Assembly: GCA_034439575.1 (NCBI GenBank)
Contig: JAWXAQ010000030.1
Location: 32,001 to 96,000 of the forward strand
Direction: 5' to 3'
DNA: 64,000 nt
DNA from: Leptospira sp.
Lineage (GTDB): Bacteria > Spirochaetota > Leptospiria > Leptospirales > Leptospiraceae
In this document: positions 1 through 57,770 of the stretch, in pieces
Numbering within the stretch: position 1 is the first letter of the stretch
How the letters are laid out: every line of letters starts with the position of its first letter
Notes under the pieces: generated by a model
Database searches by the model: none
Told to the model about the DNA's origin: nothing
Seen by the model: the letters and a program-made list of their open reading frames with translations, nothing else
Translations under genes and position numbers: made by a program

Positions 1-1754
1 TGGTAGGCCGCATTATCAGGTTCGAGATTGGTTGCTTTGATTAACAATTCTTCCGATTTTTCTTTATTAATTCCTTTTTCCGCATAAAGATAACCAAGAT
101 AATTATAAGCATTGGCATTTTCAGGGCTAAGTTCTATAGATTTCTGAAAATATTTTTCTGCATTTTTGAAATCCTTTTGTTTATCATAAGCAATCGCTAA
201 ATAAAAAACATGATTTGTGTTATTCGGATCTATTTCTACAGCCTTAATAAAAGAAGGTAGGGCATTTTTATAATCTTCTTTTTGGGAGTAAAGTATACCT
301 TTCATATAATGATAATCTGCCGTGTTTGGGTGAGCGGTTATGAGTTGATTGATGATTTGAAGTGATTCATCAAATTTTTTTACGTTTTGGCCCATAAGTA
401 AATAAGCCATTCTTAAATTCAATTGGTCGTTATACGATTGTGGGTTCGAACTTTCTTTGGCCGCGCGTAGAACTAAAATCGCGGATTGGATTTTATTTTG
501 CGCTTCTTTACAATGTGAAATTTTTTCGTAGAGGATAGGAATATCTTTATTCAAATCGCTTGTATCTTTTGCAATTTTCAAAGCCCGAGAAAAATACTTT
601 TCTGCCGTCATATATTGTCTATATTGAAATGCCCATTGCCCTGCATCTAAATTTGCTTTGTACTTTTTATTGGTATCAGAGGAACTGATCAAATCAGCAT
701 ACAGTACTTGTGCCGAAAGACGATTGGGATTTTTTTCTAAGAATTTTAAAACTTCTGTTTCTAAACCATTTACTTCGCCTCTTAAATATTTAAAGATTAA
801 AAGTATGATTCCTTCTTTGGGTATTTTTTTTTCTAAAGTTAAAACGGTAAAATAATCGCTAGAAAAAACGCGCGAATCTAAAAAATACATTTCACCTAGC
901 ATATGCGAGGCGTCAATTTCTCTTGGATTCAATTCTCTGATCTTAGATAGAAATTTTTTCGCAGATCCAAATTCACCCAGTGTAAAATAAATCTGCGCCA
1001 CTCGAAATAAAACTTCCGTATCGTTCGGTGCAAATACCAAATAATTCCTGTAATGCTCTATCGATTTGCGAGAATAATCTAATTTGTAATTTAAATCACC
1101 GAGAAACTTTAATATGGTGGGCTTTAATTTGGAACCTGAATCTCGTTTTTGGATCACATCATTTAATGATATAAAATACAAAACAGATCGATTCCATTGT
1201 TTGAGATCATAATAAATATTTCCCAAATAAAAAAGAAAATCCAAATCAAAGGGATAAGATTTAAGGTTTACTTCAAGCACCTTAGCCGCAGGTTCTAAAT
1301 CTCCTTTTTTTAAATGGATGCGTGCCTTTTGTAATATAATTTCCCTTGGAGGAATTTTGGGAGCATCAAACATGCGATAGGCGTTATCACTCCAAGTCAG
1401 GGCTTGGTCAAAATTACCAAGTTCTAAATAATTATTGGCAAGCGACATGGCACTAATGTAGGTCGGACCTAAGTTTTTTTCCTTACGACAAACATGGTAT
1501 TTATCAAAAAAGGAAATCGATGTTTCGAAATGCGATTTTGATTCCTTAACTTTGTTTTGGTCCGCTTTATGAAGACCATCTCTTTGTTCCTGAAAGGCGC
1601 GAGATAAGAAAAATTCATCAGGTACGCCCTTTTCTGACAGGGAACAAGACTTAATTTCACTGGCAGGTGCGGCTCCAAGGGACGAAGAAAGTATGGCTAC
1701 AGTGAAGAAAAATGAATAGAAAGGTTGCTTGGTTTGGTTAATTGCTTGAAACAT
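1..1754 (-). CDS. TPR-repeat protein, probably exported; 3' end runs off the window start
   Basis: Not in the ORF track because it is open-ended. Manual translation from ATG at 1754 gives MFQAINQTKQPFYSFFFTVAILSSSLGAAP... (signal-like), then helical TPR-like segments such as SLANNYLELGNFDQAL and NAYNYLGYLYAEKGIN. Confidence 0.7.
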   Translation of the reverse strand, partial: MFQAINQTKQPFYSFFFTVAILSSSLGAAPASEIKSCSLSEKGVPDEFFLSRAFQEQRDGLHKADQNKVKESKSHFETSISFFDKYHVCRKEKNLGPTYISAMSLANNYLELGNFDQALTWSDNAYRMFDAPKIPPREIILQKARIHLKKGDLEPAAKVLEVNLKSYPFDLDFLFYLGNIYYDLKQWNRSVLYFISLNDVIQKRDSGSKLKPTILKFLGDLNYKLDYSRKSIEHYRNYLVFAPNDTEVLFRVAQIYFTLGEFGSAKKFLSKIRELNPREIDASHMLGEMYFLDSRVFSSDYFTVLTLEKKIPKEGIILLIFKYLRGEVNGLETEVLKFLEKNPNRLSAQVLYADLISSSDTNKKYKANLDAGQWAFQYRQYMTAEKYFSRALKIAKDTSDLNKDIPILYEKISHCKEAQNKIQSAILVLRAAKESSNPQSYNDQLNLRMAYLLMGQNVKKFDESLQIINQLITAHPNTADYHYMKGILYSQKEDYKNALPSFIKAVEIDPNNTNHVFYLAIAYDKQKDFKNAEKYFQKSIELSPENANAYNYLGYLYAEKGINKEKSEELLIKATNLEPDNAAY

Positions 1755-3064
1755 CCGTGGATTCCGGCAAAGTTCGGGAACAGGGACAATCCTTGAACCA
1801 GATCTTCCGAGAAAATTTAAAATACATTCTGGCCGTTCTCTTCGTGTGGGCAATCACTTTCCCATCGATTCTCCAAAACAAAGATAACATTCTGGCCACC
1901 ATCAACTTATGGTACAACAACCTATCTGGTTACCCAAACCCGAGGATAGCGCACCAATTGGCTCATAAAGGGGATGAAATCCTACAAGGTAGACAAGAAA
2001 GATCGGGCGGATTTTTTTCTAATCTGACATCTCTTGTCTCATCTGATGATTCGGGGAAGTCCATGGGCCTACCCTTAGACCTGCAGATTATGGAAAAATC
2101 ATGTTTGTACTATAGATCCAAAGAACATATAGAAGAAATATTTTTAGAACCTACTTGGTTACAAAAATCGCAAACTTGGAATTCTCGGTTGTTCCGAAAT
2201 GCAAAACCCGTTCCCACAGACGAAGTTTCGCTCGGACCCAATCCCAAGGAATATTGGAATTCTCATATCGAAGCTGTGCTTGAGGCATTGGACTATTACA
2301 AAAGAGCCCTTCGTTTTTCAGGTCCTGAATTTATCGTACCTAAAAAAATAGAATCTGTAGCTTGGGCAGTTTGTCGGCCAGCGGAGATCTTACTTGCTTA
2401 CAAAACTCATATGTTGGAAACAGAAAAATATGTTTTTGATAAACTGGATAAAGAAAATAAACTTCCGACCAATTTAAAGAACGCGAGCGAATTACAAAAG
2501 TTAACTGTGATACTATCTTCCATTAAAATAGGTAGTTTTCCAGAAGTGAATCAAAATGATTATTTAGAAAGTTTACTTCGCCAAATTCTTCTCACTGGTA
2601 TGAAAAATTTTTCTCCGAGAGAGATGGATTCAGTCTTTGAACGAATTCTATTTTTTGTAGGTCACGATGACAAAGAATATTTAAAATTTATGTTAAGGCG
2701 TGGGGATTTATTCTTTTTACTCGGAAAAGAAGAACCAGTTTATTTTAAAAAAGCTATCTCACAATACCAAGTTTCCGCAAATATTAAGTTAGCTGAGAGT
2801 GACGAGACAGTAGATTTGCCGATTCTTTTAGTACATCAATTTGAATCCACACTTGCTATTACTAAATGTTATCACGAATTAGGTGATGACAAAAAATCGC
2901 TTACAATTTTGGATTCTCTTATCCCAAGACTTAGAAATGTAGACCAAAGAAGTGTGGGTGGGGTCAAGGTGCAGATTCTAAATGACTATATTCAAACAAA
3001 AGTCGCAGTCTTAAGGAAACTAAAAAGATATGAGGAAGCAGATGAAATTCTTCAATCGGAATAA
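1742..3064 (+). CDS. Hypothetical membrane-anchored helical (TPR-like) protein; first gene of the desulfurase/CHAT/sigma operon
   Basis: 440-aa ORF with one N-terminal hydrophobic helix (YILAVLFVWAITFPSIL) and TPR-like C-terminus (AVLRKLKRYEEADEIL). Start uncertain (TTG 1742 or GTG 1757). Confidence 0.6.
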   Translation: MLETSVDSGKVREQGQSLNQIFRENLKYILAVLFVWAITFPSILQNKDNILATINLWYNNLSGYPNPRIAHQLAHKGDEILQGRQERSGGFFSNLTSLVSSDDSGKSMGLPLDLQIMEKSCLYYRSKEHIEEIFLEPTWLQKSQTWNSRLFRNAKPVPTDEVSLGPNPKEYWNSHIEAVLEALDYYKRALRFSGPEFIVPKKIESVAWAVCRPAEILLAYKTHMLETEKYVFDKLDKENKLPTNLKNASELQKLTVILSSIKIGSFPEVNQNDYLESLLRQILLTGMKNFSPREMDSVFERILFFVGHDDKEYLKFMLRRGDLFFLLGKEEPVYFKKAISQYQVSANIKLAESDETVDLPILLVHQFESTLAITKCYHELGDDKKSLTILDSLIPRLRNVDQRSVGGVKVQILNDYIQTKVAVLRKLKRYEEADEILQSE

Positions 3065-4180
3065 ATGATTTATCTTGATTATAATGCCACTCACCCACCC
3101 ATTCCCAAAATATTAAATGAAGTTAATGAAAACTATTTAGCTGAATTTTATAATCCTTCTGGTGCCACAAGGTATTCTCTAAATAACCAAGGAAAGATAG
3201 AAGAGTCTCGGAAATATTTTTCATCAATCACAGGAATTCCTGAAAAAAATATAATTTTTTCTTCCAGTGGAACTGAGGCAAATTATTTATTGATCCGATT
3301 TCTGACACAGAATTTTATAAACTTAACTTCTGTCATAGTCAGTCCCTTTGAACATCCGAGCATATATTCCGCATTAGATGACCACAATCTAACAAAATAT
3401 ATCTTAGAGACAAACAAATCGGGAGTCATTCTACTTGATCACTTAGAAAAACTATTAGAAAAACATCCTCGTCCCATCATTTGCCTAGCTGTCGCGAATG
3501 AAACGGGAGTGATCCAACCTAGTGAAGAAATTGCCGCTCTGGCCAATCGGTATTCAGTGCCGTTTTATAGTGATTTGATGCAAGCCTTTGGAAAACAAAA
3601 GGTAAACTTTGATTTATTCTCAGGATTCACTTTTTCTGGACATAAAATTGGTGCGGGAATGGGAGCATCTCTCACTGCCGTTCGTCACTTAACAGATAAC
3701 ACTCATATCTTTGCTGGGGGCAACCAAGAAAATAACCATAGGGCGGGTACGGAAAATTGGCCAGCAATCATAGCCTTTCAAAAAGCAAGTGAATACCAAT
3801 TGGAACAATTGGAATCAAAAAATTCTAAACTGAAAAGATTTCAAAATATTTTGGAAGCATTTTTGGTTTCCCAAAAATGCGAAATCATAGGAAAAAATGC
3901 AAATCGATTGCCTAACACTAGTTTTGTTTTATTGCCTATAGAAGAAATCGATTTTTTCCTTTTGGGATTGGAAGAAGCGGGTGTGATCGTCTCCACGGGT
4001 AGTTCTTGCAAATCTAGAGCCAGGGAAGCTTCGAGTTCCCTATTAAGTATGGGTTATACTAAGGAAGAGGCATTACGTTGCATACGCATTTCAACTGGAA
4101 TCTTCACTACAGAAGATGAGATACATATTTTTTGTGAAAAGGCACGGGAACTTTTGATCACTTTTGGTGTGAATCATTAA
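3065..4180 (+). CDS. Cysteine desulfurase, IscS/NifS family (PLP-dependent)
   Basis: Motifs IYLDYNAT, NPSG, SSGTEAN, EHPS, NETG, SGHK (PLP lysine), RAGTEN and STGSSC (catalytic Cys). Confidence 0.9.
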   Translation: MIYLDYNATHPPIPKILNEVNENYLAEFYNPSGATRYSLNNQGKIEESRKYFSSITGIPEKNIIFSSSGTEANYLLIRFLTQNFINLTSVIVSPFEHPSIYSALDDHNLTKYILETNKSGVILLDHLEKLLEKHPRPIICLAVANETGVIQPSEEIAALANRYSVPFYSDLMQAFGKQKVNFDLFSGFTFSGHKIGAGMGASLTAVRHLTDNTHIFAGGNQENNHRAGTENWPAIIAFQKASEYQLEQLESKNSKLKRFQNILEAFLVSQKCEIIGKNANRLPNTSFVLLPIEEIDFFLLGLEEAGVIVSTGSSCKSRAREASSSLLSMGYTKEEALRCIRISTGIFTTEDEIHIFCEKARELLITFGVNH

Positions 4181-4181
4181 A

Positions 4182-5540
4182 ATGAAAATTCGCATCATCA
4201 CCAAACCGAGTAAAGCTGGCAATCCAGATATTCCCGATGGGGAAATCATATGGGAAGACAGAAAAAATTCTTTTTCCCCAGTAGAAATCATCACAGCCTT
4301 AGATGGTAAAAAATTAAAAATTTTCTTACAGGATTGGAATCAATTTTATGTAAGGACGATGCAAACAAATCTAAGTAAGGATGAGTTAAACCAAAAATTA
4401 TTCAAAAAATCTCAGAGTTTGGAACAAATCGTATTTGGAAATAAAGAATTACCGTGGAAAACAAAACAATTTAAATCAGAAATTTTTTTACAAACAGATC
4501 CAGAATTTACATCTTACCCTTGGGAAATTCTTCGCACCGATAAAGATTTTTTTTTTGAAAGACCAAATTTTTATCGAGGCATAAGATCCAATAGACGATT
4601 CGAAGGATCAGCCCTTGGTAAAACATTTTTATTAATCCAAAACCCAGTCTTAAAGGAATTAGAACAGAGTGTTAAAAAAGAATCGAGTCAGATTTCTACT
4701 TTGTTTGAAGATGATAAAAGTTACCCACTAAGACGGATTAGGCCAGAGAATCTACAACTCCCAAAATTTTGGGAGGAAATTTCAGAAGCAAGTTTATTGC
4801 ATTATAGTGGCCATACAGAAAAAACAGGAATCCCGTTTCCGAAAGATGACATAGTACTCGGGGAAGAAATCGGCCAAGCCAAACTTTCTAATTTAAACGT
4901 TGTATTTTTAAATAGTTGTCATTCTGCTTTTGAAGGTGAAAAAACAACTGGACTCGCGTCTCAATTTTTGAATTCGGGGGCAAAACACGTATTAGGTTTT
5001 TTAACACCAATTGAAACGGAACTAGCTGAAAAAATCGGATTTCAATTTTGGAAATCTTTTAAAAAAACAAAGAATGTTCAAAAATCCTTTAGATTTACTA
5101 AAACTTTATTATTAAAAGGAAATAGTGCAGAAATCTTAAGTAGCCTTTCCTTTGTATGTTTTGCACCAGAAGAAAAAAATAAATTCAAAAATATTCTATT
5201 TATATTTCTATTCTGTTTACTTTTACTGATTGGGCTTTTCTTTTTTGAGGCATCAAAGAATCGCTCTACTAAATTAGAAAATTATAATTTACCTGAATCT
5301 AAAAACATCGAAAAAAATACAAAAATTAACGAAGAGAAACCAAAAAAAATAATATTAGATAGCCGGATCGCTTCCCTCAAAAATCCCCAATTCCGAAATC
5401 AAATTTATACCTTTCTAAACGAAGAAAACCCCCTACTTTCTAAATCCGAGCGAAAACAACTCGTTGAAGAAATATTAAGTGGTGATGAAAATGAAGAAAT
5501 GAAATACTATCACTTTAAAATTGAAACGGGAATCAATTGA
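4182..5540 (+). CDS. CHAT-domain (caspase-like) protease with a C-terminal TM helix and extracytoplasmic tail
   Basis: CHAT hallmarks YPWEIL, LLHYSGH (His), VVFLNSC (Cys) and GLASQFLNSGAKHVLG, followed by hydrophobic ILFIFLFCLLLLIGLFFF. Confidence 0.8.
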   Translation: MKIRIITKPSKAGNPDIPDGEIIWEDRKNSFSPVEIITALDGKKLKIFLQDWNQFYVRTMQTNLSKDELNQKLFKKSQSLEQIVFGNKELPWKTKQFKSEIFLQTDPEFTSYPWEILRTDKDFFFERPNFYRGIRSNRRFEGSALGKTFLLIQNPVLKELEQSVKKESSQISTLFEDDKSYPLRRIRPENLQLPKFWEEISEASLLHYSGHTEKTGIPFPKDDIVLGEEIGQAKLSNLNVVFLNSCHSAFEGEKTTGLASQFLNSGAKHVLGFLTPIETELAEKIGFQFWKSFKKTKNVQKSFRFTKTLLLKGNSAEILSSLSFVCFAPEEKNKFKNILFIFLFCLLLLIGLFFFEASKNRSTKLENYNLPESKNIEKNTKINEEKPKKIILDSRIASLKNPQFRNQIYTFLNEENPLLSKSERKQLVEEILSGDENEEMKYYHFKIETGIN

Positions 5541-6556
5541 TGGTTCGATATTTTTTATTTTTCTTTGTCCTGCTCGTTTTTTTTTCAAACTCCTTATTTT
5601 CCCAAAATAAGGAAGAAAAGGAGTGGGAGGATTTTTTAAATACTAAAATTCCTTTAACAAACATTAGCCCTATTTACCAGGAAAATTTCCATAATTATGG
5701 AGAAAATGAGATCAATGTAGAGAAAGATTTTTTATTGTCACGTTGCAAATATGAACAAATTAAAAGTTTAAGTAAACTCCTAGAATCATTTTCGAATATA
5801 GATGCCATACTTTTGCTTAAATCCTGTAAAAATATAGATCCCAAAAATATCAAAAAGGTCGAATCGATATACAAACAAAAGATATACGATTTAATCAAAT
5901 TTCCAAAACTAGAATTGATATCATCGGAAAAAGAAGACCCCGAACTAAACTTATTGCACATCCAAATTCTAAATTTATGGGAAGAACGAGTTTATTTTTA
6001 TTCCAACTTTTATAACCCACATGCACTATCTTTTTTAGCTGAAGAAAAAACATTCACGGAAGAAATCAATCGCATCGTTTATTCTGATATGAATCAGATC
6101 AGAAGGATTTCCCTTTTAAAAAAAATGAAAGAGGATTTGATTAGGAATCAAAAATCCATATACCTATCCTTTTCCCATTCTGAAATTAATCCTTTCCAAG
6201 CAAAAACTCTCATTGAGGAAAATCAAAAGGTACTTTCGGATTTATTATCACTTTTCACTATTTTCCTAAAAGATTCAGAACTCCCCACATTAAACAAAGA
6301 CAACTTACTTGCATGGCAATCTTGTTTAAACGAATTGGACATAAAGACTCCAAATGTAAGATTACTTGCCTTTTATGGTTTTTTTGAAGACTATAAAAGA
6401 TTCAAAATGGATTCATTCCCCCCTGATAGTAAAGAAGTAGTCTCCATTCGTCTTTTTTTAAGAAAAAATCTCTATCAGGCTCATCATTTTTCGGGACGGA
6501 TAAACTATGCTTTAAATACTTGCAGAAAGATACTAAAATTCACTACGAACCAATGA
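5537..6556 (+). CDS. Hypothetical exported protein
   Basis: 339-aa ORF with signal peptide (RYFLFFFVLLVFFSNSLFS-Q); ATGA overlaps with both neighbours. Confidence 0.65.
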   Translation: MMVRYFLFFFVLLVFFSNSLFSQNKEEKEWEDFLNTKIPLTNISPIYQENFHNYGENEINVEKDFLLSRCKYEQIKSLSKLLESFSNIDAILLLKSCKNIDPKNIKKVESIYKQKIYDLIKFPKLELISSEKEDPELNLLHIQILNLWEERVYFYSNFYNPHALSFLAEEKTFTEEINRIVYSDMNQIRRISLLKKMKEDLIRNQKSIYLSFSHSEINPFQAKTLIEENQKVLSDLLSLFTIFLKDSELPTLNKDNLLAWQSCLNELDIKTPNVRLLAFYGFFEDYKRFKMDSFPPDSKEVVSIRLFLRKNLYQAHHFSGRINYALNTCRKILKFTTNQ

Positions 6557-7122
6557 GCGACGACATTCGACATTTACTCGATGATTGTATTCTTGGCAAA
6601 GAGAATGCTTGGAAATCATTTATACTACGATTTCACAAGTTAATTACAGGGACAGTAGCCCACTACGTTCCACAATCAGAAATTAGCGACACTGTCCAGT
6701 TAGTTTATTTACGCATAACGCATAATGATTTTCAATTAATTCGTAAGTTTAAAGGGGAAAGCCTTCCTGCATTCATTGTCTATTTGAGTGAAATCGCAAA
6801 AAATGTAAGTCTATCACAAACACGTGTCATTCGTCGTATGGATTTTAGAGAAGGCATAGGCTTAGATGATACGATCGATGTTTTGGATGAAAGGGCGATC
6901 CCAGAAAGTATCTATTTTGAGTTAGAAGAACAGAATGAAGTTTACAAACACATATCCAAGTTAGATGAAATTCACCGCGAAATCCTTATTTTGCGATTAA
7001 AAAGTTACAAATTTAAAGATATTGCTGATATTTTGGGAGTTCCACTAGGTACGGTGCTTGCACGTGCTAATCGGGCGAAAGAAAAATTAAAAAAAATCGT
7101 CCAAAAGGAAATAAAGGACTGA
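6553..7122 (+). CDS. ECF-type RNA polymerase sigma-70 factor
   Basis: Region 2 (AWKSFILRF...DTVQLVYL) and region 4 HTH (REILILRLKSYKFKDIADILGVPLGTVLARANRAKEKL). ATG at 6553 overlaps the upstream TGA. Confidence 0.9.
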   Translation: MSDDIRHLLDDCILGKENAWKSFILRFHKLITGTVAHYVPQSEISDTVQLVYLRITHNDFQLIRKFKGESLPAFIVYLSEIAKNVSLSQTRVIRRMDFREGIGLDDTIDVLDERAIPESIYFELEEQNEVYKHISKLDEIHREILILRLKSYKFKDIADILGVPLGTVLARANRAKEKLKKIVQKEIKD

Positions 7123-7674
7123 TTGGAAGACATCTATTATATGGAAGCATCAGACAATAATTCATTTATGAACAAACTCAAATTGAAAGAAGCACTGTAT
7201 CTTATGAGCCAGGGCAATGAAGCCGATCCAGAAACTGTAAATCAAATTCTCGCTCAGATATTGCCAAAAGCTGATTTCAAACAAATGATCTTGCTTCGCT
7301 TCAAAGAAACGATTTTACAAGTCATGACTCACGAAACCAAGGCCTTCGAACTCCACCCAAACCTGGGTCTATCCTTTCGTGGAGAAACTGCCACCATATA
7401 CAAGTTAAATCGTGAATTGAATGACCGTCAGGTGACTTTTTTACTCTCTCCGAACGCAGAGCAAACCGAAATCCATCTGGCGGTAGAGATGAACCCTCCT
7501 GCCAATTACCGTGTAAAATTGAAACTGGATGGGGATACGATCGAAACTCTATCTGATCTGACAAAAGAAAAAGCCTTTGATTCCCCCATCACGGAAGATT
7601 CTGCCCCAGAACTCGTATTTTTTGAGCAAAATAGAGAAATTGGACGATTTCATTTAATTTTAGAAATAGATTAA
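7123..7674 (+). CDS. Hypothetical soluble protein directly after the ECF sigma; candidate anti-sigma
   Basis: About 180-aa ORF abutting the sigma gene, with a helical N-terminus, a GLSFRG motif and a beta-rich C-terminus. Start is TTG 7123 or ATG 7141. Confidence 0.6.
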   Translation: MEDIYYMEASDNNSFMNKLKLKEALYLMSQGNEADPETVNQILAQILPKADFKQMILLRFKETILQVMTHETKAFELHPNLGLSFRGETATIYKLNRELNDRQVTFLLSPNAEQTEIHLAVEMNPPANYRVKLKLDGDTIETLSDLTKEKAFDSPITEDSAPELVFFEQNREIGRFHLILEID

Positions 7675-7703
7675 TTTTTTTTCCATTCCGTGCAATAAAT
7701 CTC

Positions 7704-7730
7704 CCTACATTTGTAATTTATAAATGTAGG
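7704..7730. terminator. Stem-loop downstream of the sigma operon
   Basis: cctacatttgta pairs with tataaatgtagg (one G-U); no strong U-tract follows. Confidence 0.4.
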
Positions 7731-7784
7731 CATTGTTTTAAAAACTTTGGATCCTACTTTCTTTTCCAAACTAGTTTAATTTAG

Positions 7785-7810
7785 ACCCGACTCATGAGTC
7801 GGGTTTTTTT
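7785..7810 (+). terminator. Intrinsic terminator between the convergent sigma operon and ychF
   Basis: Perfect 20-bp palindrome acccgactcatgagtcgggt followed by a T-run on the + strand. Confidence 0.75.
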
Positions 7811-8907
7811 TAGGCATTGATGCGGAAGTAAATGACATCCCCGTCTTGGACTACGTATTCCTTGCCTTCGATGCGGAGTTTTCCTTCATCTTTCACCTTG
7901 GCTGGGTCCCCAGTGCGATCTACATCCTCAAACCGCATCACTTCAGCTCGTATATATCCCTTTTCAAAATCTGAGTGGATCACCGCCGCCGCTTGCGGTC
8001 CCGTGCTACCATTTAAAGTGGTCCAAGCTCTGACTTCTTCCACACCAGCTGTGAGAAATGTGATCAAACCGAGCAATTTATAAGATGCCTGGATCATTCT
8101 TGTCAGACCCGATTCCGTTTCACCGATTTCGGCAAGGAAGGCTTTTTGGTCTTCTTTTTCTAGACCAGAGATTTCTTCTTCAAAACGACCACATAACACT
8201 ACCGATTCGGCACCTTCTTTGGCAGCGTAATCTTTGATAGTTTGGACATGAGGATTTTTTGAATTTTTCACATCTGATTCTTGAATATTTGCAACATATA
8301 ATACTGGTTTAATGGTAATCAAATTGAATTTTTTCGCAATTTTTAATTCTTCGTCATTTAGTTTAACAGACGCTGCACGAAATCCTTTTTTTAAGGCTTC
8401 TAGTATCTTGTCCATGACTGCCGCTATTTCTGCGGCTTCTTTATTTCCCGCTTTGGCAGATTTAGCAATGCGTTGTTGTTGTTTTTCTAAGCTATCAAGG
8501 TCAGCTAAAATCAATTCATAATTGATCACAGTAATGTCTTCAATAGGATCAACTTTTCCATGAACATGCGTTATGTTTTCATCTTCGAAGGCACGAACCA
8601 CATGACAAATAGCTTCTACTTCACGTATATGAGAGAGAAATTGATTTCCAAGTCCCTCGCCATCGCTTGCCCCTTTGACAAGTCCCGCGATATCCACAAA
8701 TTCAATGGTTGTGGGGAGGATACGTTTTGGTTTATAAATGGTCGCGAGTCTTTCTAAGCGCGGATCTGGAACTTCTACAATGCCTGTGTTCGGCTCAATC
8801 GTGCAAAAAGGATAATTTGCCATTTGAGCACCCGCTTTCGTAAGCGCGTTAAAGATCGTAGACTTACCTACGTTCGGAAGACCAACAATACCACAATTCA
8901 ATGCCAT
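7810..8907 (-). CDS. ychF: Redox-regulated ATPase YchF (Obg family)
   Basis: [37 protein letters not shown], and TGS-domain end [13 protein letters not shown]. Confidence 0.97.
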
Positions 8908-8958
8908 AAGGATAGGTTTGAAAATTGAAGCCTTGAGACAAGGAAAAATGTGAGCTTA

Positions 8959-9477
8959 TCAATTTGGCATAAAGCCTGTTTCCAAATAGATATAGGTTAA
9001 ATAACTGCAGAAAAAAATAACGGTGCTAAAATAAATAAAGAGATACACTTTACCAATTTTTTTCCAAGGAGCACGACTTGCTAATTGAAACGTTTCTATC
9101 GTTTGTGCCGAATTATAATTTTTAAATAGCGAATCTCTTGGTTTCAAATTAATTGCATCGCATAGATTTTTTAATATTTCTTCGCGTCTCATTTCATCTA
9201 AGCGAAAAAATTCAGCATGATCACCTTTATTTAAAATTTCTAATACACAATGCGGGATCTCATACATTTTAAATAGTATGATTCCCGAAAAGGAAGTCAG
9301 AAGTGCCAGGTAATTTAAAATCACAATCGCGGGGCTTGCCGTATATGATACCGAAAATAAAAAATATAAAAATAAAATCAAAAAAGTATAAGATACAATC
9401 CTTCTATAAATCGTAACGCGCGTTATCCATTTTTTTTCCTTCAAATAATCATTATAAACTATATCTTGTGAAATCAT
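8959..9477 (-). CDS. Hypothetical membrane protein (about 3 TM)
   Basis: 172-aa ORF with three hydrophobic stretches, in a co-oriented gene run. Confidence 0.6.
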   Translation of the reverse strand: MISQDIVYNDYLKEKKWITRVTIYRRIVSYTFLILFLYFLFSVSYTASPAIVILNYLALLTSFSGIILFKMYEIPHCVLEILNKGDHAEFFRLDEMRREEILKNLCDAINLKPRDSLFKNYNSAQTIETFQLASRAPWKKIGKVYLFIYFSTVIFFCSYLTYIYLETGFMPN

Positions 9478-18172: not shown

Positions 18173-21100
18173 TTATTTTCTGATCCATAAACGCATCATT
18201 CGTTCAAAATCAGATTTCATTGCTGGTTTGCTAATATAATCATTCATTCCCGCTTCTAAACATCTTTCCCTTTCACCAAGCACAGTCCCTGCTGTCACAG
18301 CGATAATCGGCAATAATTTAGCACCCGTGATCTGACGTATGGCTTTCGAGGCTTCATATCCATTCAATTCAGGCATTTGGATATCCATAAAGATGATATC
18401 AGGCATTTTTAAATTGACTAAATCTACGGCCTCTCTGCCATTTTTAGCTTCAATGAGATTAGAGTTGGGTGCAATCCTTCTAAGAATGGAATAAGCTAAT
18501 TTCATGTTAACCGAATTATCCTCGACAATCATTATAGTTAAAGTAACGTCAGTTATATACGGTTTAGCTGAATCATATAATGGTCTTTTGATTTCAGAAT
18601 TAAAATCAAAAAGGGAAGAATCTGAAGACTCGAGTATCAGATCAAAAAAGAAATCAGAACCTTCACCTAACTCACTTTCTAATTGAATTTTACTATCCAT
18701 TAAACTCAAAAGTTGATTTGATATGGATAATCCAAGTCCAGTGCCTCCAAATCTACGTGTTGTTGAAAAATCTTCCTGAGTGAAGGCTTCAAAAATCTTA
18801 CTCTGATTTTGAGCTGCGATTCCTATTCCGGTATCTTTTATAGAAATTCTTATTTTCACTTTATCATCAGAAATTTTTTCTAGTACTGTGATAGAAAACT
18901 CAATCTTACCTTTTTCAGTAAATTTAATCGCATTGCTTAACAAATTTACAATAATTTGTTTGATTCGAAGCGGATCAATTTCTACAAAATCAGGTAATTC
19001 AGGATCAATGAGTAACCTAAGTTTAATTTGTTTTTGATTTGCTTGGTATCTCACGATGTTAATCACTTCATCAGCAAGGTCACCTAAGCTCGTCCTTTCC
19101 AAATTCAGTTCAAGTTTGCCTGCTTCAATTTTGGAAAAATCCAAAATATCTGATACAATGTCTAACAATGAATTAGCGCTTTGGAATACGGTTCGCAAAT
19201 AATCTTTTTGTGTATGATCAAGGGACGTTCGAAGTAACAAATCTGTGAAACCAATGATACCGTTTAAGGGAGTGCGAATTTCATGGCTCATATTCGCAAG
19301 AAAGTCTGACTTTGCGATACTCGCTTGTTCAGCCAATATTTTTGCTTTTTTCAATTCTTCTTGGATGGTTTTCTGTTCATGAATGTCCCGTGCTACGACA
19401 GAAGCTCCATTCACAATTCCCTTAAGATCGTAAATGGGAGAAATGGAAACGGATAAATCTACAAGTTTTCCAAACTTTGTTTTTCTTTGGGTTTCTAACT
19501 GAACGATACTTTCACCTTTCGAATATTTTTCGATAATCCACTGTTCTTCTTCTTGTTTATCGATCGGTAATAAAATTTCCGTTGATTTACCAATAGCTTC
19601 CTCAGATGTAAAACCAAACAAATGTTCTGCTCCGCGATTCCATGTAAGGATTTTGCCTGTCAAATCTTTGCCATAAATAGCATCCGTGGAAGAATCTACT
19701 ATGGCGAATAGCCTTTGACTCATCAACTCATGGCTACGAAGAGCAGTTATATCTTGAATACTACCAAATATTTTTTTACAAACACCATTTTCAAATATAA
19801 CTTCAGCTATCACTCGAACCCATTTTAAATTATTCTTAGCGGTCGTTAGTTGAAATTCATAATCAAATGGGATACCTTTTGTAATTGCCAAATTAACAGA
19901 TTCATAAATTTTCTCTCTCGAGTCTTGATCTTTGTAATAGTTAATAGCTTCATCCAAAGGCGGATTAAAGTTCATCCCTACTTCATGGATTTCTTTAGTT
20001 ATGTCAGACCAAAACAATTCTCTTGTATCAGGCTTTAATTCCCAAGCCCCAACTCTTGCGATCCGACTTGTCTGCTCAAGCATTCGTTTTAAATTTAAAA
20101 GTTCAATTTCAGATTTTCTACGTTCAGTGATATCAGTCGAAATGGTCATGACAGACAATCCTGGCGATGACAGTGGAACTGCCGTTACGTTAATCCATAT
20201 GATATTTTTATCTTCTAATTCGATTCCGATGATTTGATCTGCTATAATTTTTTTTTCTTTTAAACAACGAGCAGATGGCATTTCATCCAAAGAATACTCA
20301 CTATAATCTGATTTAAGATACTTTCTATTTTTATACTCACGACTAATAATCGAATTTTTTGAAAGTTTTAATAATTCTTCTAATTTGGGATTCACCTCTA
20401 TAATTTCATTCTTATCATCTATGATAGTAACTCCAACTGGTAGCGATTGAAGAAGTATTCGAAGTTCTGCTTCGCTCTTTTCTACTTTATTTTTTGCTTC
20501 TTTAATAGCAGTTATATCTGCAACTTGAGCAACAAATCCATCAACATTTCCATCCTTATCATATGCTGGGATATAATTTGCTATAGAATATCTAACCCCT
20601 TTCCCATTTGCCTCGGGAAATTCTCTTTCAAAAACCTGACTTTCTCCTTTCAAAACATTTTCCAAATAAGATTTGTTTAAATTATAAATTTTTTCGCCTA
20701 ATACATAGGAAATATGTTTGCCTTGTATCTCTTTCGGACTTTTCCCAAACCAATTTGAATAAGCTTGGTTAGCAAAAACATTATTTAAATTTTTGTCCCA
20801 ATAACCGATCATAGATGGAATCAAATCCAAAACTCGATAAATTTCCAAATTCGAAGAATTCTCTATTGATGAACTACTATGAGTAAAATTGCGAAATATA
20901 ACAAAATGTACCATCGCATTACTTTCATTAGTATATGATTCAATAATGTAATCAAAGAAATATAATTGTCCTTTTTTATTTACAAAAGAAATCTCCTTCC
21001 AATCTTTCGAAGAATGGTTAAGTAATTTATTTTTTAACGTATTTATTTGCGCTTCATCCAAGATTTCAGATAATTTGGGAGGAGAATCCATTTCTGTCAT

Positions 21101-21265
21101 GCCAATCGAATTCAGAAAAATTTGGGAATACAGGATGGAATCAATATCTTCACCATTTAAAATCAAAAATCCATTGCTAGCTTCATTGAAAACGATTTCA
21201 AAAATTTCATCAGGTGCTTTTTTTAATAGTTCAAGGATGATTTTGGATTGATTACTTTTGCTCAT
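18173..21265 (-). CDS. Cytoplasmic multi-PAS hybrid sensor histidine kinase/response regulator
   Basis: Several PAS/PAC repeats, HisKA FLANMSHEIRTPLNG, HATPase NLLSNAIKFT/DTGIG/GGTGLGL, REC IFMDIQMP. Confidence 0.92.
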   Translation of the reverse strand: MSKSNQSKIILELLKKAPDEIFEIVFNEASNGFLILNGEDIDSILYSQIFLNSIGMTEMDSPPKLSEILDEAQINTLKNKLLNHSSKDWKEISFVNKKGQLYFFDYIIESYTNESNAMVHFVIFRNFTHSSSSIENSSNLEIYRVLDLIPSMIGYWDKNLNNVFANQAYSNWFGKSPKEIQGKHISYVLGEKIYNLNKSYLENVLKGESQVFEREFPEANGKGVRYSIANYIPAYDKDGNVDGFVAQVADITAIKEAKNKVEKSEAELRILLQSLPVGVTIIDDKNEIIEVNPKLEELLKLSKNSIISREYKNRKYLKSDYSEYSLDEMPSARCLKEKKIIADQIIGIELEDKNIIWINVTAVPLSSPGLSVMTISTDITERRKSEIELLNLKRMLEQTSRIARVGAWELKPDTRELFWSDITKEIHEVGMNFNPPLDEAINYYKDQDSREKIYESVNLAITKGIPFDYEFQLTTAKNNLKWVRVIAEVIFENGVCKKIFGSIQDITALRSHELMSQRLFAIVDSSTDAIYGKDLTGKILTWNRGAEHLFGFTSEEAIGKSTEILLPIDKQEEEQWIIEKYSKGESIVQLETQRKTKFGKLVDLSVSISPIYDLKGIVNGASVVARDIHEQKTIQEELKKAKILAEQASIAKSDFLANMSHEIRTPLNGIIGFTDLLLRTSLDHTQKDYLRTVFQSANSLLDIVSDILDFSKIEAGKLELNLERTSLGDLADEVINIVRYQANQKQIKLRLLIDPELPDFVEIDPLRIKQIIVNLLSNAIKFTEKGKIEFSITVLEKISDDKVKIRISIKDTGIGIAAQNQSKIFEAFTQEDFSTTRRFGGTGLGLSISNQLLSLMDSKIQLESELGEGSDFFFDLILESSDSSLFDFNSEIKRPLYDSAKPYITDVTLTIMIVEDNSVNMKLAYSILRRIAPNSNLIEAKNGREAVDLVNLKMPDIIFMDIQMPELNGYEASKAIRQITGAKLLPIIAVTAGTVLGERERCLEAGMNDYISKPAMKSDFERMMRLWIRK

Positions 21266-25195: not shown

Positions 25196-26473
25196 TTAAA
25201 TGGCTAAGTACAAATCTCTAAATATCGAATTTGGTTTGATGGGATCAAGAGGATCCTGCAAGTTTATTCTAATGCCTTTCACCAAGTACATGTCGATCTC
25301 TCCTTTATTCTTCGCTGTGACTTTCCCCCTATACTCACATTCAAAGAAATCTTTGACCATTTCGTAAGTTTCTCTAGAAATATTCACTTCACCAACTAAA
25401 CCTGAACTTTCTAATCGACTTGCCGTATTCACGCTATCTCCCCAAATATCATATGCAAATTTATCAGTTCCCACAACACCGGCAATAGCAGGTCCTGTGT
25501 GAATCCCAAGTCTCAATTCCCAAACGGGTAAATTCTGCAATTGTCGCATCTCTTTATGATCCAACATAAATCTTTGAAATTCCAATCCACATAACACTGA
25601 GTCAATGGCATTTGTTTCATTCGCAATGGGTAGTCCACCAGCCGCCATATAAGCATCACCGATGGTTTTGATTTTTTCCATTTTATGGCTTTTGATGATC
25701 GAATCAAATCCTCGAAAATAAACGTCTAGTTCACCTAACAGTTCTTCCGGAGACATTGTTTCGGCAACTTTTGTAAATCCGGCCATATCAGTGAATAAAA
25801 TTGAAACTTTTTCAAATCTAACGGGTACAACTGAATTTGTTCTTTTCAATTCTTCTGCGACTGATTCAGGAAGTATATTTAACAATAGTGAATCGGATTT
25901 TTTTCGTTCAATATTCAAATTTCGAGATAGGATAAAAATCAAAATCCCTGTTAAAATCTGAACAAAGATATAATTTCCTCCAGCATCTAAATAACGATCC
26001 ATTTCACTTTGATAACTAACGATATATTCCTTATGGAAATATTCGATGGTGTAAAGGGAAGCTGTCACGGAGATATAAAAAAAATACAATAACCAAACAT
26101 GATGATTGCGAAGTAAAATCGTTGCAATTACAAGAGCTGGAATAAAATAATAATGATTTCCGCCGACAGAACCCCCATTATAAAACCACATCGCAGACAA
26201 ATATGTAAGTATGGTTAGGTTGAAAGGCCAGAATAAAATATAATAAATGCTTTTAATTCTTGAAATAAAATACATTCCGATCATAAGAAGACCGGAAGTG
26301 ATATTTAACAAAAAAATGATTTCAAAATTCTCTAAATAAAAAGCTCCTAGAGCCCCAAAAATATTGAGAACTCCATTAACCAAAGCGATGGTATTAAATA
26401 GTCGATGTTCTAATGAATTTTTTTTCGGATCACCAAATAGGAAATAAATTAAAGATAAAAGTTTCTCTTGCAT
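25196..26473 (-). CDS. Membrane-bound class III adenylate/guanylate cyclase
   Basis: About 6 TM then LLLNILP, LFTDMAGFT, KIKTIGDAYM, YDIWGDSVNTASRLES; the Lys/Asp pair suggests ATP specificity. Confidence 0.9.
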   Translation of the reverse strand: MQEKLLSLIYFLFGDPKKNSLEHRLFNTIALVNGVLNIFGALGAFYLENFEIIFLLNITSGLLMIGMYFISRIKSIYYILFWPFNLTILTYLSAMWFYNGGSVGGNHYYFIPALVIATILLRNHHVWLLYFFYISVTASLYTIEYFHKEYIVSYQSEMDRYLDAGGNYIFVQILTGILIFILSRNLNIERKKSDSLLLNILPESVAEELKRTNSVVPVRFEKVSILFTDMAGFTKVAETMSPEELLGELDVYFRGFDSIIKSHKMEKIKTIGDAYMAAGGLPIANETNAIDSVLCGLEFQRFMLDHKEMRQLQNLPVWELRLGIHTGPAIAGVVGTDKFAYDIWGDSVNTASRLESSGLVGEVNISRETYEMVKDFFECEYRGKVTAKNKGEIDMYLVKGIRINLQDPLDPIKPNSIFRDLYLAI

Positions 26474-36084: not shown

Positions 36085-36927
36085 TTATGTATTAGATAAG
36101 AGTCTCATAATTGAATTTGGCCTAACATTTGATTGCGCGAGCATCGCCGTACCGCTTTGCACCAGAATTTGTTTCGTGGTAAACGCAACCATCTCCTCAG
36201 CCATATCCGCGTCTCTGATCCTTGATTCGGATGCTTGCATATTTTCATATGCACCCATGAGACCTTTTGCAGCACTTTCGAGTCTATTTGAATAGGCTCC
36301 CATGTCCGCTCTTTGTTTCATGATCTTCGTCAAGGCGAAATCCGCCAAAGCAATCGCCGCATCAGACTTGCCAGGTGTAGAGAGAGAAACATCCGCTCTC
36401 GACATCTTTAAAGCTTTTGCAGTCATAGTTCCAATGTAGAAACGCTCACGTTGGTTTGCGTTTGCTCCCATTTGGAACCACATCGACGCCTTCTTAGATC
36501 CTCGAGCAAAATCACCCTCAAACAGTTTAAACTTGTTAAACTCTGCTTGAGATGCAACCCGATCGAGCTCATCCACTAGCGCAGATACTTCTACCTGCAC
36601 GAGCTGCCTGTCCTCCGGGGTGTAGATTCCGTTCGCCGTCTGAATGGCAAGGGTACGAATTCTCTGAACGATTTCAGATGACTGGCTGAGAAAACCCTCA
36701 GCAGTCTGGATGAAACTCATTCCATCCTCCGTATTCCTTTCCGCCTGACGTAAACCGCCGATCTGTGATCGCAGTTTTTCCGAAACAGCAAGCCCTGAAG
36801 CATCGTCACCGGCATGGTTAATCCTTTGGCCGGTCGACAAATTCCTCATGGTCTTGTCTACATCCCATTGTGTAAACTTGAGAGAGCGATGCGATTGTAT
36901 CGCGCTCATGTTGTGATTGATAATCAT
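36085..36927 (-). CDS. flaB: Periplasmic flagellar filament core protein FlaB
   Basis: [46 protein letters not shown]. Confidence 0.97.
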
Positions 36928-36932
36928 TGGCC

Positions 36933-36994
36933 TACACTCCTTTGTGTATTACCAAATGCAGTAAACTGCGCTTAGCCGGACAATCCCTGTCCGG
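36933..36994 (-). promoter_or_regulatory. Putative CsrA-binding hairpins in the downstream flaB leader
   Basis: Minus strand: ccggaca-GGGAT-tgtccgg, and tacac-AAAGGA-gtgta with the SD in the loop. Confidence 0.55.
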
Positions 36995-37129
36995 TGTCAA
37001 GGATGAGCATTCTCATTGCCACCTGGCAGGGAAGGCCGACCGATTATCTAATTATAACGCTAAAGTTACACAATTCCTCTGTTAAATCATTCGTCTCATC
37101 AAACGTGCATGAGACGATTCTTCATTTTT

Positions 37130-37975
37130 TTATCGAAGGAGAGACAGTACGCCTTGTGGTCGGACATTTGCCTGAGCGAGCATTGCAGTTCCAGATTGAA
37201 TTAAAATCTGGTTCTTAGTGAACTCTACGGTCTCTTCAGCCATATCAACATCTCGGATTCTAGATTCAGACGCTTGTGTGTTTTCATAAGCATTCATCAA
37301 ACCTTTAGCTGTGTGTTCCAATCTATTGAAATACGCACCTAAGTTTGCTCTTTGTTTGCTAATTCTGTTTAAAGCATCATCTAACTTTCCGATAGATTCA
37401 TTGGCTTGGTCGGCAGTTGACAGAGTCAGTGCTATGTTACTTTGACTTTTCAAATTCAAAGATTTGGCAGTCATAGTAGCGATAAACACTCGTTCTCTGT
37501 GGTGTTGATTTGGACCCAAGTGAAACCACATGGATGCAGATCTAGAACCACGAGCAAAGTCACCTTGCAGTAAATTCATTTTATTGAATTCTGCCTGAGA
37601 AGCAATACGGTCCACCTCGTCGATGAGCTGTGATACTTCTACTTGGATCATTTGTCTGTCTTCGTCCGTATAGATTCCGTTAGACGACTGAATCGCTAAC
37701 ACACGAATTCTTTGGATGATATCACCAGTCTGCGCAAGGAAACCCTCGGTCGTCTGTATGAGACTCATTCCGTCTTCTGTGTTACGTTCAGCCTGTCTTA
37801 GGCCATTCACTTGCGTTCTGAGTTTTTCAGATACGGCAAGACCGGAGGCATCGTCAGCGGCACTGTTGATGCGGAGACCCGAAGAGAGTTTCGACATATT
37901 TTTCGAAACTTCCTCGTTTTGAAATTTGAGCACGCGGTGGGAGTTAATCGCGGCTAGATTGTGATTTATGATCAT
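37130..37975 (-). CDS. flaB: Periplasmic flagellar filament core protein FlaB
   Basis: [40 protein letters not shown]. Confidence 0.97.
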
Positions 37976-38578: not shown

Positions 38579-38878
38579 TTATCTTTCCACAATGCGAAAT
38601 ATTTTTTTTCCAATGCGAAATTGGTCACCTGGTTTCAATTCATAAGGCTCTGTGATTCGCACAAATACCCCATTTTTACTATTTAAATCTTCGATATGGA
38701 TTTTATTTTCTTTGGTGCTAATCAAACAATGCACACGACTCACGGAAGGATCTTCTAAAATCAAATCACCTTGGGCACGACCAATGGCCAATTCGTTTTC
38801 GAAAGTAAACTCTTCAATAGAATTCCCTTCTCCATCTAGAGTTTGCAGACGATAGACTTTTCTTGCGTTTGCGGCCAA
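38579..38878 (-). CDS. Stand-alone FHA domain protein
   Basis: IGR, VSRVH, DLNSKNGVFV; TTG start. Confidence 0.85.
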   Translation of the reverse strand: MAANARKVYRLQTLDGEGNSIEEFTFENELAIGRAQGDLILEDPSVSRVHCLISTKENKIHIEDLNSKNGVFVRITEPYELKPGDQFRIGKKIFRIVER

Positions 38879-56890: not shown

Positions 56891-56960
56891 ATCTCGGATG
56901 AGTTTAAAATCCAGGACTTTGTTTGGGAATGAAAAAAATTTAAATATTAAAACGTCCTGA

Positions 56961-57770
56961 TCAATATAGTCCTTCGACTTTCCTATATAAAGCCAAATAC
57001 GACCAAAGAATAGCCACAAACAAAATAAAGCCCAATGAATAAACGCCCTTCTTCTGAATTTCCTCTTCTCCTCCCGCCCGCCAGACAAGAAAAATTGCAT
57101 TTTCTTTGGGAATATCGCCCACTACATTTCTTTTTTCAGAATCCCAAATCGATTCACGTAAAACGCTTCCCCCTCTTGCTTCATTTACAAAATCGCAATT
57201 TTCTTCAGGTTTCGCATAACATAGTGCATACAATTCAAAATTTTTGTTTGGTGAAACGCTAGATAGAATAGGAACAAATCGAAATTTTAAAACTGGTCCA
57301 TAATACTTGGATTGCCCTCTGGCTCTTACCGCGATAGGTGCTAAAAAACTTCCGCCTTTATCTTCATTCAATATAAAATCTTTTAAAAAGATATATTTGT
57401 AATGTGAATGTTTCACAACCTCTTCTGGAATCATATTTTTGATAGCAGTAACTTGTGTTATATATCCGACGAAATCTCCCAAAAATAAAATAGAAATCCC
57501 ACCGCAGAAGAGTGACAGAAAAACTGAAATTAAGATATAGTAACCAAATTTTGATATAAACGAAATTCCTATAAGTAAAAGAGGTAAAAATAATACCATC
57601 AAAGCCCAAATGGAAATAGATACTGGTAAATAGGCACCAAATGGTAAAAGTGCTATGGTAAATCCAAAAATCATAATTAGCCCGTAAACTAACATCAATT
57701 TGTTTGAAAAATTTGGATTCGGACGATTTGGGCGTCTTCTCGGTTGTGATTCAATAAATCCGAGTGTCAT
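56961..57770 (-). CDS. Hypothetical membrane protein
   Basis: 3 N-terminal TMs, a soluble domain, and a C-terminal TM. Confidence 0.6.
   Translation of the reverse strand: MTLGFIESQPRRRPNRPNPNFSNKLMLVYGLIMIFGFTIALLPFGAYLPVSISIWALMVLFLPLLLIGISFISKFGYYILISVFLSLFCGGISILFLGDFVGYITQVTAIKNMIPEEVVKHSHYKYIFLKDFILNEDKGGSFLAPIAVRARGQSKYYGPVLKFRFVPILSSVSPNKNFELYALCYAKPEENCDFVNEARGGSVLRESIWDSEKRNVVGDIPKENAIFLVWRAGGEEEIQKKGVYSLGFILFVAILWSYLALYRKVEGLY

Follow-up and report, generated by a model that had tools for sequence, protein, structure and literature searches.

For most extracytoplasmic function (ECF) sigma factors that take their input from the cell envelope, release depends on a membrane-spanning anti-sigma factor being broken down by site-1/site-2 intramembrane proteolysis. 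A gene cluster of a water-dwelling Leptospira sp., carried on a 64,000 nt stretch of DNA (contig JAWXAQ010000030.1, positions 32,001 to 96,000; this whole stretch is called the window, and its numbering is used throughout), may follow another route. Four genes on the plus strand, between 4182 and 7674, encode a membrane-anchored CHAT (caspase-like) protein, an exported protein, an ECF sigma factor and a soluble candidate anti-sigma factor. It was originally predicted that the protease is activated from the periplasm, cuts the anti-sigma factor and so releases the sigma factor. The nearest described systems, for which the published accounts are drawn on here in excerpt, share some of these parts and differ in others.

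The system that resembles that of the window most, in both logic and fold, is Craspase (Csx29-Csx30-CASP-sigma), in which Csx29 cuts Csx30 and CASP-sigma is thereby relieved (PMC10028731). There too, the genes of a cytoplasmic CHAT protease, an ECF-like sigma factor and a soluble inhibitor occur together, and a structure search with the modelled window CHAT protein ranks Csx29 first (8eey_B, E 5.6e-11). Unlike Csx29, the window protein has no TPR, is membrane-anchored and has a tail predicted to be periplasmic; its presumed inhibitor comes from an apparently zf-HC2-derived family and is not a Csx30; and its trigger would be an envelope cue, whereas that of Craspase is target RNA. The locus had been proposed to be independent of CRISPR, and this is borne out: PADLOC reported no cas or defence model on five of the cluster genes (all but a NifS-like gene), the Cas2 row that it returned for the exported protein (E 0.054) not being significant, and no Cas family was found by Pfam among 42 further open reading frames (ORFs) of the window.

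In Myxococcus xanthus, the ECF sigma factor of the DdvA-DdvS pair is controlled by an anti-sigma factor that spans the membrane and carries a ZAS-type domain and a periplasmic TPR-CHAT (PMC11506125). A CHAT fold and a ZAS-type sigma trap are thus united at the membrane, and the DdvA structure (8rot_A) matches the window CHAT model with E 1.3e-6. In DdvA, however, the anti-sigma domain, the transmembrane segment and the periplasmic CHAT are parts of one polypeptide, with RseP proposed to finish the job, whereas in the window the CHAT protein and the anti-sigma factor are products of separate genes, the CHAT domain is predicted to be cytoplasmic (an inverted topology), and the anti-sigma factor is soluble and has no zinc site. 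CalpL, another cytoplasmic protease, cuts CalpT, the soluble anti-sigma factor of an ECF-type sigma factor, and frees CalpS (bioRxiv 10.1101/2023.06.23.546230), but it differs from the window protein in its Lon protease fold (Lon-SAVED), its cyclic oligoadenylate trigger and its link to type III CRISPR. The soluble ZAS anti-sigma factors RsrA, ChrR and RshA resemble the window protein in being soluble and encoded beside an ECF sigma factor, and its wider family includes members with zf-HC2 and HxxxCxxC; the window protein itself differs from them in having neither the zinc-finger segment nor cysteines, and its beta domain has no significant solved relative.

A CHAT gene as neighbour of an ECF sigma gene is also known from group ECF54 (neighbours CHAT, subtilase or carboxypeptidase), where its place in a conserved neighbourhood prompted the suggestion that control is proteolytic (PMC8999054). 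The group is actinobacterial and is described as having no anti-sigma factor (PMC7826278), whereas the window locus has a candidate for one and belongs to the Leptospira lineage. Neither "CHAT" nor "Leptospira" occurs in the main text of PMC7826278, the supplements being outside the search. The Leptospira module is not described in the literature searched, and the supplements of the ECF re-classification may list its sigma group.

The sigma factor and its likely anti-sigma factor

The gene at 6553–7122 encodes an ECF (group IV) sigma factor of 189 aa from its ATG, as had been predicted. It scores 51.3 bits against TIGR02937 (cut-off 42.9), and as a profile it can be aligned with E. coli sigma-E (1or7) from position 4 to 185 (E 7e-32) and also matches 5wuq, 4cxf and 2q1z. 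Pfam region 4 was found in the protein, and Pfam region 2 was not reported at E <= 0.1. Its orthologues (at least 62% identity) all come from saprophytic-type Leptospira, and the next matches fall to 29%. A supplementary table of PMC4758666, seen in excerpt, gives LEPBI_I1238, LEPBI_I2109 and LEPBI_II0053 as ECFs absent from pathogens; the window sigma factor was not mapped to any of them. The linker between sigma domains 2 and 4 (6835–6930, residues ~95–125) is unusually conserved in the Leptospira orthologues. It shows almost no variation at R99 and G101, which lie in the context D-F-R-E-G, a faint echo of an F-R-G turn in the anti-sigma factor, and this motif is not conserved in a plasmid paralogue of the sigma factor that is described below.

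The sigma gene ends with TGA at 7120–7122, and 18 nt further on lies the ATG (7141) of the candidate anti-sigma gene (7141–7674, 177 aa). The ORF opens at TTG 7123 (7123–7674, 183 aa), and the orthologues start at the position of the ATG. The gene stands directly 3′ of the sigma gene in the window and in 6/6 related loci, with gaps of 18–27 nt. The two genes are in the same frame in five of these seven loci (the window, L001, L002, L004 and L005) and out of frame in L003 and L006, so that the shared frame is taken as coincidence and a read-through fusion of the two was rejected. The protein had been described as soluble and of about 180 aa, and indeed none of its 11 orthologues has a transmembrane segment. 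It contains no cysteine and has no Pfam or NCBIfam match, and its close relatives are found in Leptospira only. The FHA domain in the UniRef name of the L. vanthielii orthologue was rejected: the window protein has no Pfam FHA match and the fold search gave no FHA structures.

A profile of the close relatives was scored against 1.84 billion representatives, and 43 proteins were matched at E <= 1e-3 (25 of them at E <= 1e-10), most of which are 200–230 aa long, with about 35–45 extra N-terminal residues compared to the window protein. Two long repeat proteins with FAZ1 and GYR repeats (P0078, P0080) and several close short forms or fragments (P0045–P0048, P0050) were dropped from the family alignment, which holds 33 long and 10 short members. 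The extra N-terminal segment carries HxxxCxxC in seven of the 33 long members, and the motif occurs in none of the 10 short ones. Four of the HxxxCxxC members were scanned, and Pfam zf-HC2 (PF13490, cut-off 22.2 bits) was over its cut-off in two of them (P0067, 30.4 bits; P0081, 22.3 bits). The window protein begins just past the CxxC column, and the zf-HC2 segment with HxxxCxxC is absent from it. In the ESM Atlas, its first match (0.97) is the sole Spirochaetota cluster, and a cluster at 0.84 with zf-HC2 in 67% of its members serves as a lead only.

The predicted structure of the protein (pLDDT 76) consists of two N-terminal helices, 12–29 and 36–46, at low confidence (pLDDT 51–61) and a confident beta domain, 53–181. 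A fold search of this model against the PDB gave no match at E <= 0.001, the best being generic and Ig-like (E 0.01, structural TM at most 0.31), and the family profile found PDB sequences only at E >= 0.033. Conservation peaks in the N-terminal helix, where M16, N17 and L19–A24 do not vary among the 11 orthologues, and the two helices (residues 12–46 of the 183-aa ORF; 7156–7260) are the predicted sigma-binding part.

Binding of the sigma factor by the product of 7123–7674, as originally predicted, is supported by models of the complex: three runs with the 183-aa protein scored 0.81, 0.82 and 0.81, against 0.22 for the best of three controls. The mark applied to such scores is reached by 116 of 157 solved complexes and by 2 of 215 mismatched pairs, counts that are only a rough guide here as our own alignments were supplied. 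The runs share at least 86% of contacts, with a pLDDT of at least 77 for the partner. In the modelled interface, residues 15–34 and 38–49 of the partner face sigma residues 10–37 and 49–80 (domain 2) and 139–161 (domain 4), so that the N-terminal helices of the anti-sigma factor are predicted to be wedged between the two sigma domains. Sigma/anti-sigma complexes of this kind have been solved (1or7, 5wuq, 4cxf, 2q1z), and the score is therefore a measure of likeness and no proof of binding.

A related pair is present on plasmids. A tblastn search with one long family member matched four L. interrogans plasmids, and in both records inspected (NZ_CP043886.1, 4750–8745, locus L008; NZ_CP039285.1, 3255–7488, locus L009) a paralogous sigma gene is followed directly by the gene of a long-form anti-sigma homologue. 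In NZ_CP043886, the full ORF of this homologue (214 aa) begins 10 nt past the sigma stop codon. Identity with the window proteins is 30% for the plasmid sigma factor (E 1e-30) and 26% for the product of the gene behind it (E 7e-17), indicating that the pair has been kept together through deep divergence. The annotated coding sequence of the homologue starts late in both plasmid records and omits the N-terminal segment of the full ORF. Upstream of the plasmid pair are genes for a lipoprotein-like exported protein of 457 aa and for SH3-domain proteins, and downstream is one for a membrane protein of 332 aa.

The zf-HC2 domain in the wider family, the plasmid pair and the complex model together make it likely that the 177/183-aa protein is the anti-sigma factor of the adjacent sigma factor, the role for which it had originally been put forward. 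It is probably an N-terminally truncated, cysteine-free descendant of the zf-HC2/ZAS anti-sigma factors. The absence of cysteines excludes redox sensing by the window protein, and with the zinc-finger segment gone as well, some other mechanism of release would be needed.

The CHAT protein and its exported neighbour

The gene at 4182–5540 encodes a protein of 452 aa with a Pfam CHAT domain (PF12770) at residues 90–314 (score 51.6 bits where the cut-off is 24; E 1.2e-13). Its AlphaFold model (pLDDT 83), in which three N-terminal strands and two helices lie ahead of the core, gave 43 Foldseek matches in the PDB at E <= 1e-3. These have a caspase/separase-like fold, and the top ones include Csx29, separases, the craspase TPR-CHAT, DdvA and SAVED-CHAT. 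The sequence profile found no PDB sequence at E <= 1. The original prediction that the His/Cys dyad is kept holds across an alignment of 12 orthologues (42–100% identical), in all of which H207, Y208, G210, H211, N244, S245 and C246 are invariant. The candidate catalytic histidine lies in the HYSGH motif (residues 207–211; 4800–4814), where it is presumably H211, as in the CHAT family generally, and the candidate catalytic cysteine is Cys246 of the LNSC motif (residues 243–246; 4908–4919). By profile, dyad and fold the protein is a member of the CHAT protease family, with predicted peptidase activity. It has no Pfam TPR match, and no TPR is fused to its CHAT domain.

All 12 orthologues have exactly one transmembrane segment, located C-terminal to the CHAT domain, as had been predicted. 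In the window protein it appears as a hydropathy peak at ~337–355 and as a model helix at 334–361 (5181–5264). The 15 residues on its N-terminal side carry a higher net positive charge than the 15 on its C-terminal side, and hydropathy gave no N-terminal signal in any of the 12 orthologues. Given the single helix, the lack of an N-terminal signal and the more positive N-terminal flank, the CHAT domain would lie in the cytoplasm and the helical tail of ~60 aa in the periplasm. The helix is followed by a disordered juxtamembrane linker of 27 residues (363–389) and a four-helix C-terminal domain (residues 392–449; 5355–5528), predicted to be periplasmic. The model blocks covering residues 391–450 have a pLDDT of ~84–93, and I396, F404, F411, E438, Y443, F445 and K446 are invariant in the tail.

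The next gene (5537–6556) encodes a protein of 339 aa that has no known family (no Pfam or NCBIfam match), its best ESM Atlas hits, with a feature score of up to 0.77 and structural TM at most 0.30, being leads only. It had been predicted to be exported, and a hydrophobic N-terminal stretch is indeed present in all seven orthologues. Alignment of these seven sequences shows four invariant cysteines (C70, C97, C263 and C329), which together with the hydrophobic N-terminus fit a periplasmic, disulfide-bonded protein.

Gene order and the link between protease and sigma factor

According to the reading preferred here, the sigma factor would be kept inactive by the soluble product of the next gene downstream. 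That product does not span the membrane and has no redox centre, so that its release would need an outside agent, most likely the co-transcribed CHAT cysteine protease. An envelope cue would be sensed by the disulfide-bonded exported protein together with the periplasmic four-helix tail of the CHAT protein and passed through the single transmembrane helix, activating the cytoplasmic CHAT domain. The sigma factor would be freed once the active protease had cut the anti-sigma factor, the likely place being a surface loop in the beta domain. This course of events, taken as a whole, is quite possible, if short of probable. The gene identities, the dyad, the topology, the link of the anti-sigma factor to its family and the predicted sigma binding all have support in silico; periplasmic sensing, CHAT activation and the choice of the anti-sigma factor as substrate are steps that we infer. 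It is unlikely that the locus is in every respect a CRISPR-independent, chromosomal trans-envelope pathway, with a minimal, TPR-less CHAT protease that is tethered to the inner membrane, is controlled on the periplasmic side through its four-helix tail and a partner held together by disulfides, cuts a zinc-less ZAS remnant and so frees an ECF sigma factor.

The arrangement of the genes bears on this reading in several ways. The four ORFs named in the original prediction are all present where they were placed, but they do not form a four-gene unit: six plus-strand ORFs abut across 1742–7674, with genes for a 440-aa protein (1742–3064) and a NifS-like protein (3065–4180) preceding CHAT. The gap between these two is 0 nt, and that between the NifS-like gene and CHAT is 1 nt. 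One of the two ATGA overlaps originally described, at 6553–6556 between the exported and sigma genes, was verified, whereas bases 5537–5540 read TTGA, and the junction TTGATG gives an overlap of 4 nt from a TTG start or of 1 nt from ATG 5540. The overlap of CHAT with the exported gene is 4 nt in 6/6 related loci, and the junction of the exported and sigma genes in these loci is an overlap or a gap of at most 6 nt. A promoter scan found 19 sigma-70-like sites, against 21.1 +/- 4.0 in shuffled sequences, and the 200–260 nt ahead of CHAT and of the sigma gene contain no non-coding-like (promoter-like) block conserved across the loci. Given the tight junctions and the lack of such a block, the simplest reading is a single transcript of all six genes, an arrangement that is compatible with a functional tie between CHAT and the sigma factor and is no support for it.

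The genome scan gave six related Leptospira loci (L. ognonensis, L. idonii, L. chreensis, L. vanthielii, Leptospira sp. 96542 and one metagenome-assembled genome, MAG) and a further locus, L007, in an archaeal MAG. The last was rejected as unrelated to the module, its similarity being 27% identity over 62 CHAT residues only. A survey of synteny across Leptospira and other phyla had been suggested as a check. Synteny is seen within saprophytic members of the genus, where all six cluster genes occur in 6/6 related loci; co-occurrence in other phyla was not found in the scan. Flanking genes on both sides are retained as well, giving 12 or 13 collinear genes per locus.

Several of these observations weigh against the proposed release by CHAT. 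With whole neighbourhoods collinear, the synteny is inherited and the loci are not independent witnesses of a functional association. CHAT is tied to the anti-sigma factor by gene order only, and, packed together with two further genes and with no conserved internal promoter block, it could equally be a co-expressed passenger. Searching all 72,556 plasmid records by tblastn with the CHAT protein gave no match, none of the 10 ORFs neighbouring the plasmid pair gave a CHAT hit, and the plasmid loci have no homologue of the exported protein. The complex score, for its part, may partly reflect resemblance to the solved sigma/anti-sigma complexes.

The alternative that survives best builds on these points. 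The sigma and anti-sigma factors would be a real pair, while CHAT and the exported protein would be passengers, or outputs that are perhaps regulated by the sigma factor, with a substrate of their own; the anti-sigma factor would be freed by a ligand or partner acting on its beta domain, or by general proteases. This is somewhat unlikely, though the inclusion of the unrelated NifS-like enzyme in the six-gene packing, the restriction of the synteny to collinear Leptospira genomes and the plasmid pair that exists without CHAT all speak for it. Base composition and rates of change point the same way. The G+C content in the window is 0.316 for CHAT and 0.303 for the exported gene, compared to 0.361 for the sigma and 0.399 for the anti-sigma gene, and across the loci it is below that of both sigma and anti-sigma genes for CHAT in 5/7 cases and for the exported gene in 7/7, which may mean that the genes are under unlike selective constraint or that CHAT and the exported gene were inserted later, as a pair. 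Identity to the related loci is 37–53% for CHAT and 31–40% for the exported protein, whereas for the sigma factor it is 65–80%, so that the first two evolve faster. Against passengers stand the stop/start overlaps that join CHAT, the exported gene and the sigma gene, which are kept in related loci, and the anti-sigma factor itself, which has no recognisable sensing feature (no cysteine, no transmembrane segment and no significant PDB fold match). The release of soluble anti-sigma factors by proteases also has precedent.

The GLSFRG motif of the anti-sigma factor (residues 82–87) had been put forward as an exposed, possibly Arg-directed cleavage site. The motif is present, and L83, R86 and G87 are invariant in 11/11 orthologues, but it is not a site in a free linker: in the model, Arg86-Gly87 (7378–7383) forms the turn of a beta hairpin between strands 80–85 and 88–99. 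In the wider family the Arg is kept in 28/33 long and 10/10 short members and the Arg-Gly, judged by eye from the alignment columns, in 19/33 and 9/10, respectively; P0063, a representative resembling the plasmid protein, is a single case without the Arg. In some members the Arg column is followed by insertions that reach about a dozen residues in length, suggesting a surface loop. With its turn in a confidently folded domain and its Arg so widely kept, also among the long relatives, GLSFRG is no specific evidence for a cleavage site, a further point against cleavage of the anti-sigma factor. In Csx30 the cut falls within a small loop of the C-terminal domain and not in the linker, according to excerpts of PMC10028731, and a loop site in the anti-sigma factor is likewise possible and unproven.

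It is improbable, on balance, that CHAT belongs to the pathway without cutting the anti-sigma factor, cutting instead the sigma linker, itself or its exported partner, or docking the sigma/anti-sigma complex at the membrane non-catalytically. The nearly invariant R99 and G101 of the sigma linker (D-F-R-E-G) do resemble the F-R-G of the anti-sigma factor, but the likeness is short and may be due to chance. Self-cleavage has been proposed for DdvA in the excerpted text of PMC11506125, and the disordered juxtamembrane linker of the window CHAT protein is a further point for a role of this kind, whereas the invariance of the dyad in all 12 orthologues speaks against a purely non-catalytic role. 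Very improbable is the idea that the 177-aa protein is no anti-sigma factor, having lost helices 1 and 2 of the anti-sigma domain, and that the sigma factor is controlled by transcription only: the zf-HC2 segment is missing, there is no Pfam match, the start lies just past the CxxC column and the N-terminal helices are of low confidence, but no part of the protein is better conserved than the N-terminal helix that it has kept, which is set by the model between sigma domains 2 and 4 (0.81 against 0.22), and the gene is directly 3′ of a sigma gene in 7/7 chromosomal and 2/2 inspected plasmid loci.

Neighbouring features and meaning for Leptospira

The 440-aa protein at 1742–3064 has no known family (no Pfam or NCBIfam match over cut-off) and one hydrophobic helix at residues 26–44, and is 64–69% identical in 6/6 related Leptospira loci. 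The product of the next gene (3065–4180) is a NifS/IscS-like class-V aminotransferase, similar to cysteine desulfurases (Pfam Aminotran_5, E 4e-39); its score against TIGR03402, 217.5 bits, is under the cut-off of that model (530.75). Beyond the anti-sigma gene, two terminator-like hairpins (7704–7730 and 7783–7806) close the plus-strand cluster ahead of the convergent ychF gene (TIGR00092, 499.7 bits). An Rfam scan of 1–9000 gave nothing close to a gathering score.

The first cluster gene has at its 5′ end a block of ~130 nt (1738–1870) that is almost invariant in nucleotides across the seven loci, whose proteins are otherwise just 37–80% identical. It overlaps the long form (from TTG 1853) of a divergent ORF for a TPR protein. 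Neither strand of the block folds better than shuffled sequences (z 0.82 and 2.42), there is no Rfam match, and dual coding or a shared regulatory region is possible. The TPR-repeat protein (Pfam TPR_2, 8.7e-29) is encoded on the minus strand at 3–1853 and runs off the window, with a length of at least 617 aa; a likelier start is near 1755 (MFQAINQ, with a hydrophobic stretch behind it). Fusion to TPR is common among CHAT proteins; in the window the TPR protein stands apart, as the product of a divergent neighbouring gene.

Elsewhere, the window carries a PAS-rich hybrid histidine kinase (18173–21265), an adenylate/guanylate cyclase (25196–26473), two tandem flagellin genes (Pfam Flagellin_N/C, 36085–37975) and a small FHA-domain protein (38579–38878), both of the latter on the minus strand, and a bacterial alpha-2-macroglobulin of 1950 aa (51248–57100). 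These are ordinary chromosomal content and have no link to the cluster.

Overall, the assignment of the sigma and anti-sigma factors is well supported, and a proteolytic trigger is plausible. The anti-sigma factor is soluble and has lost the zinc/redox sensor, yet its gene lies behind that of a membrane-tethered caspase-like protease. Irrespective of the protease link, a likely anti-sigma function can be given to a family without Pfam or NCBIfam match that is also found on L. interrogans plasmids. If CHAT does release the sigma factor, then the coupling of CHAT proteases to sigma factors would not be confined to CRISPR and defence islands (Craspase, DdvA) but would serve environmental signalling in free-living spirochaetes. 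Such a coupling of sigma factor and caspase-like protease would be a third one, evolved independently, and would stand beside regulated intramembrane proteolysis as an alternative; it would also make available a CHAT protease that is small and tractable and has a defined substrate.

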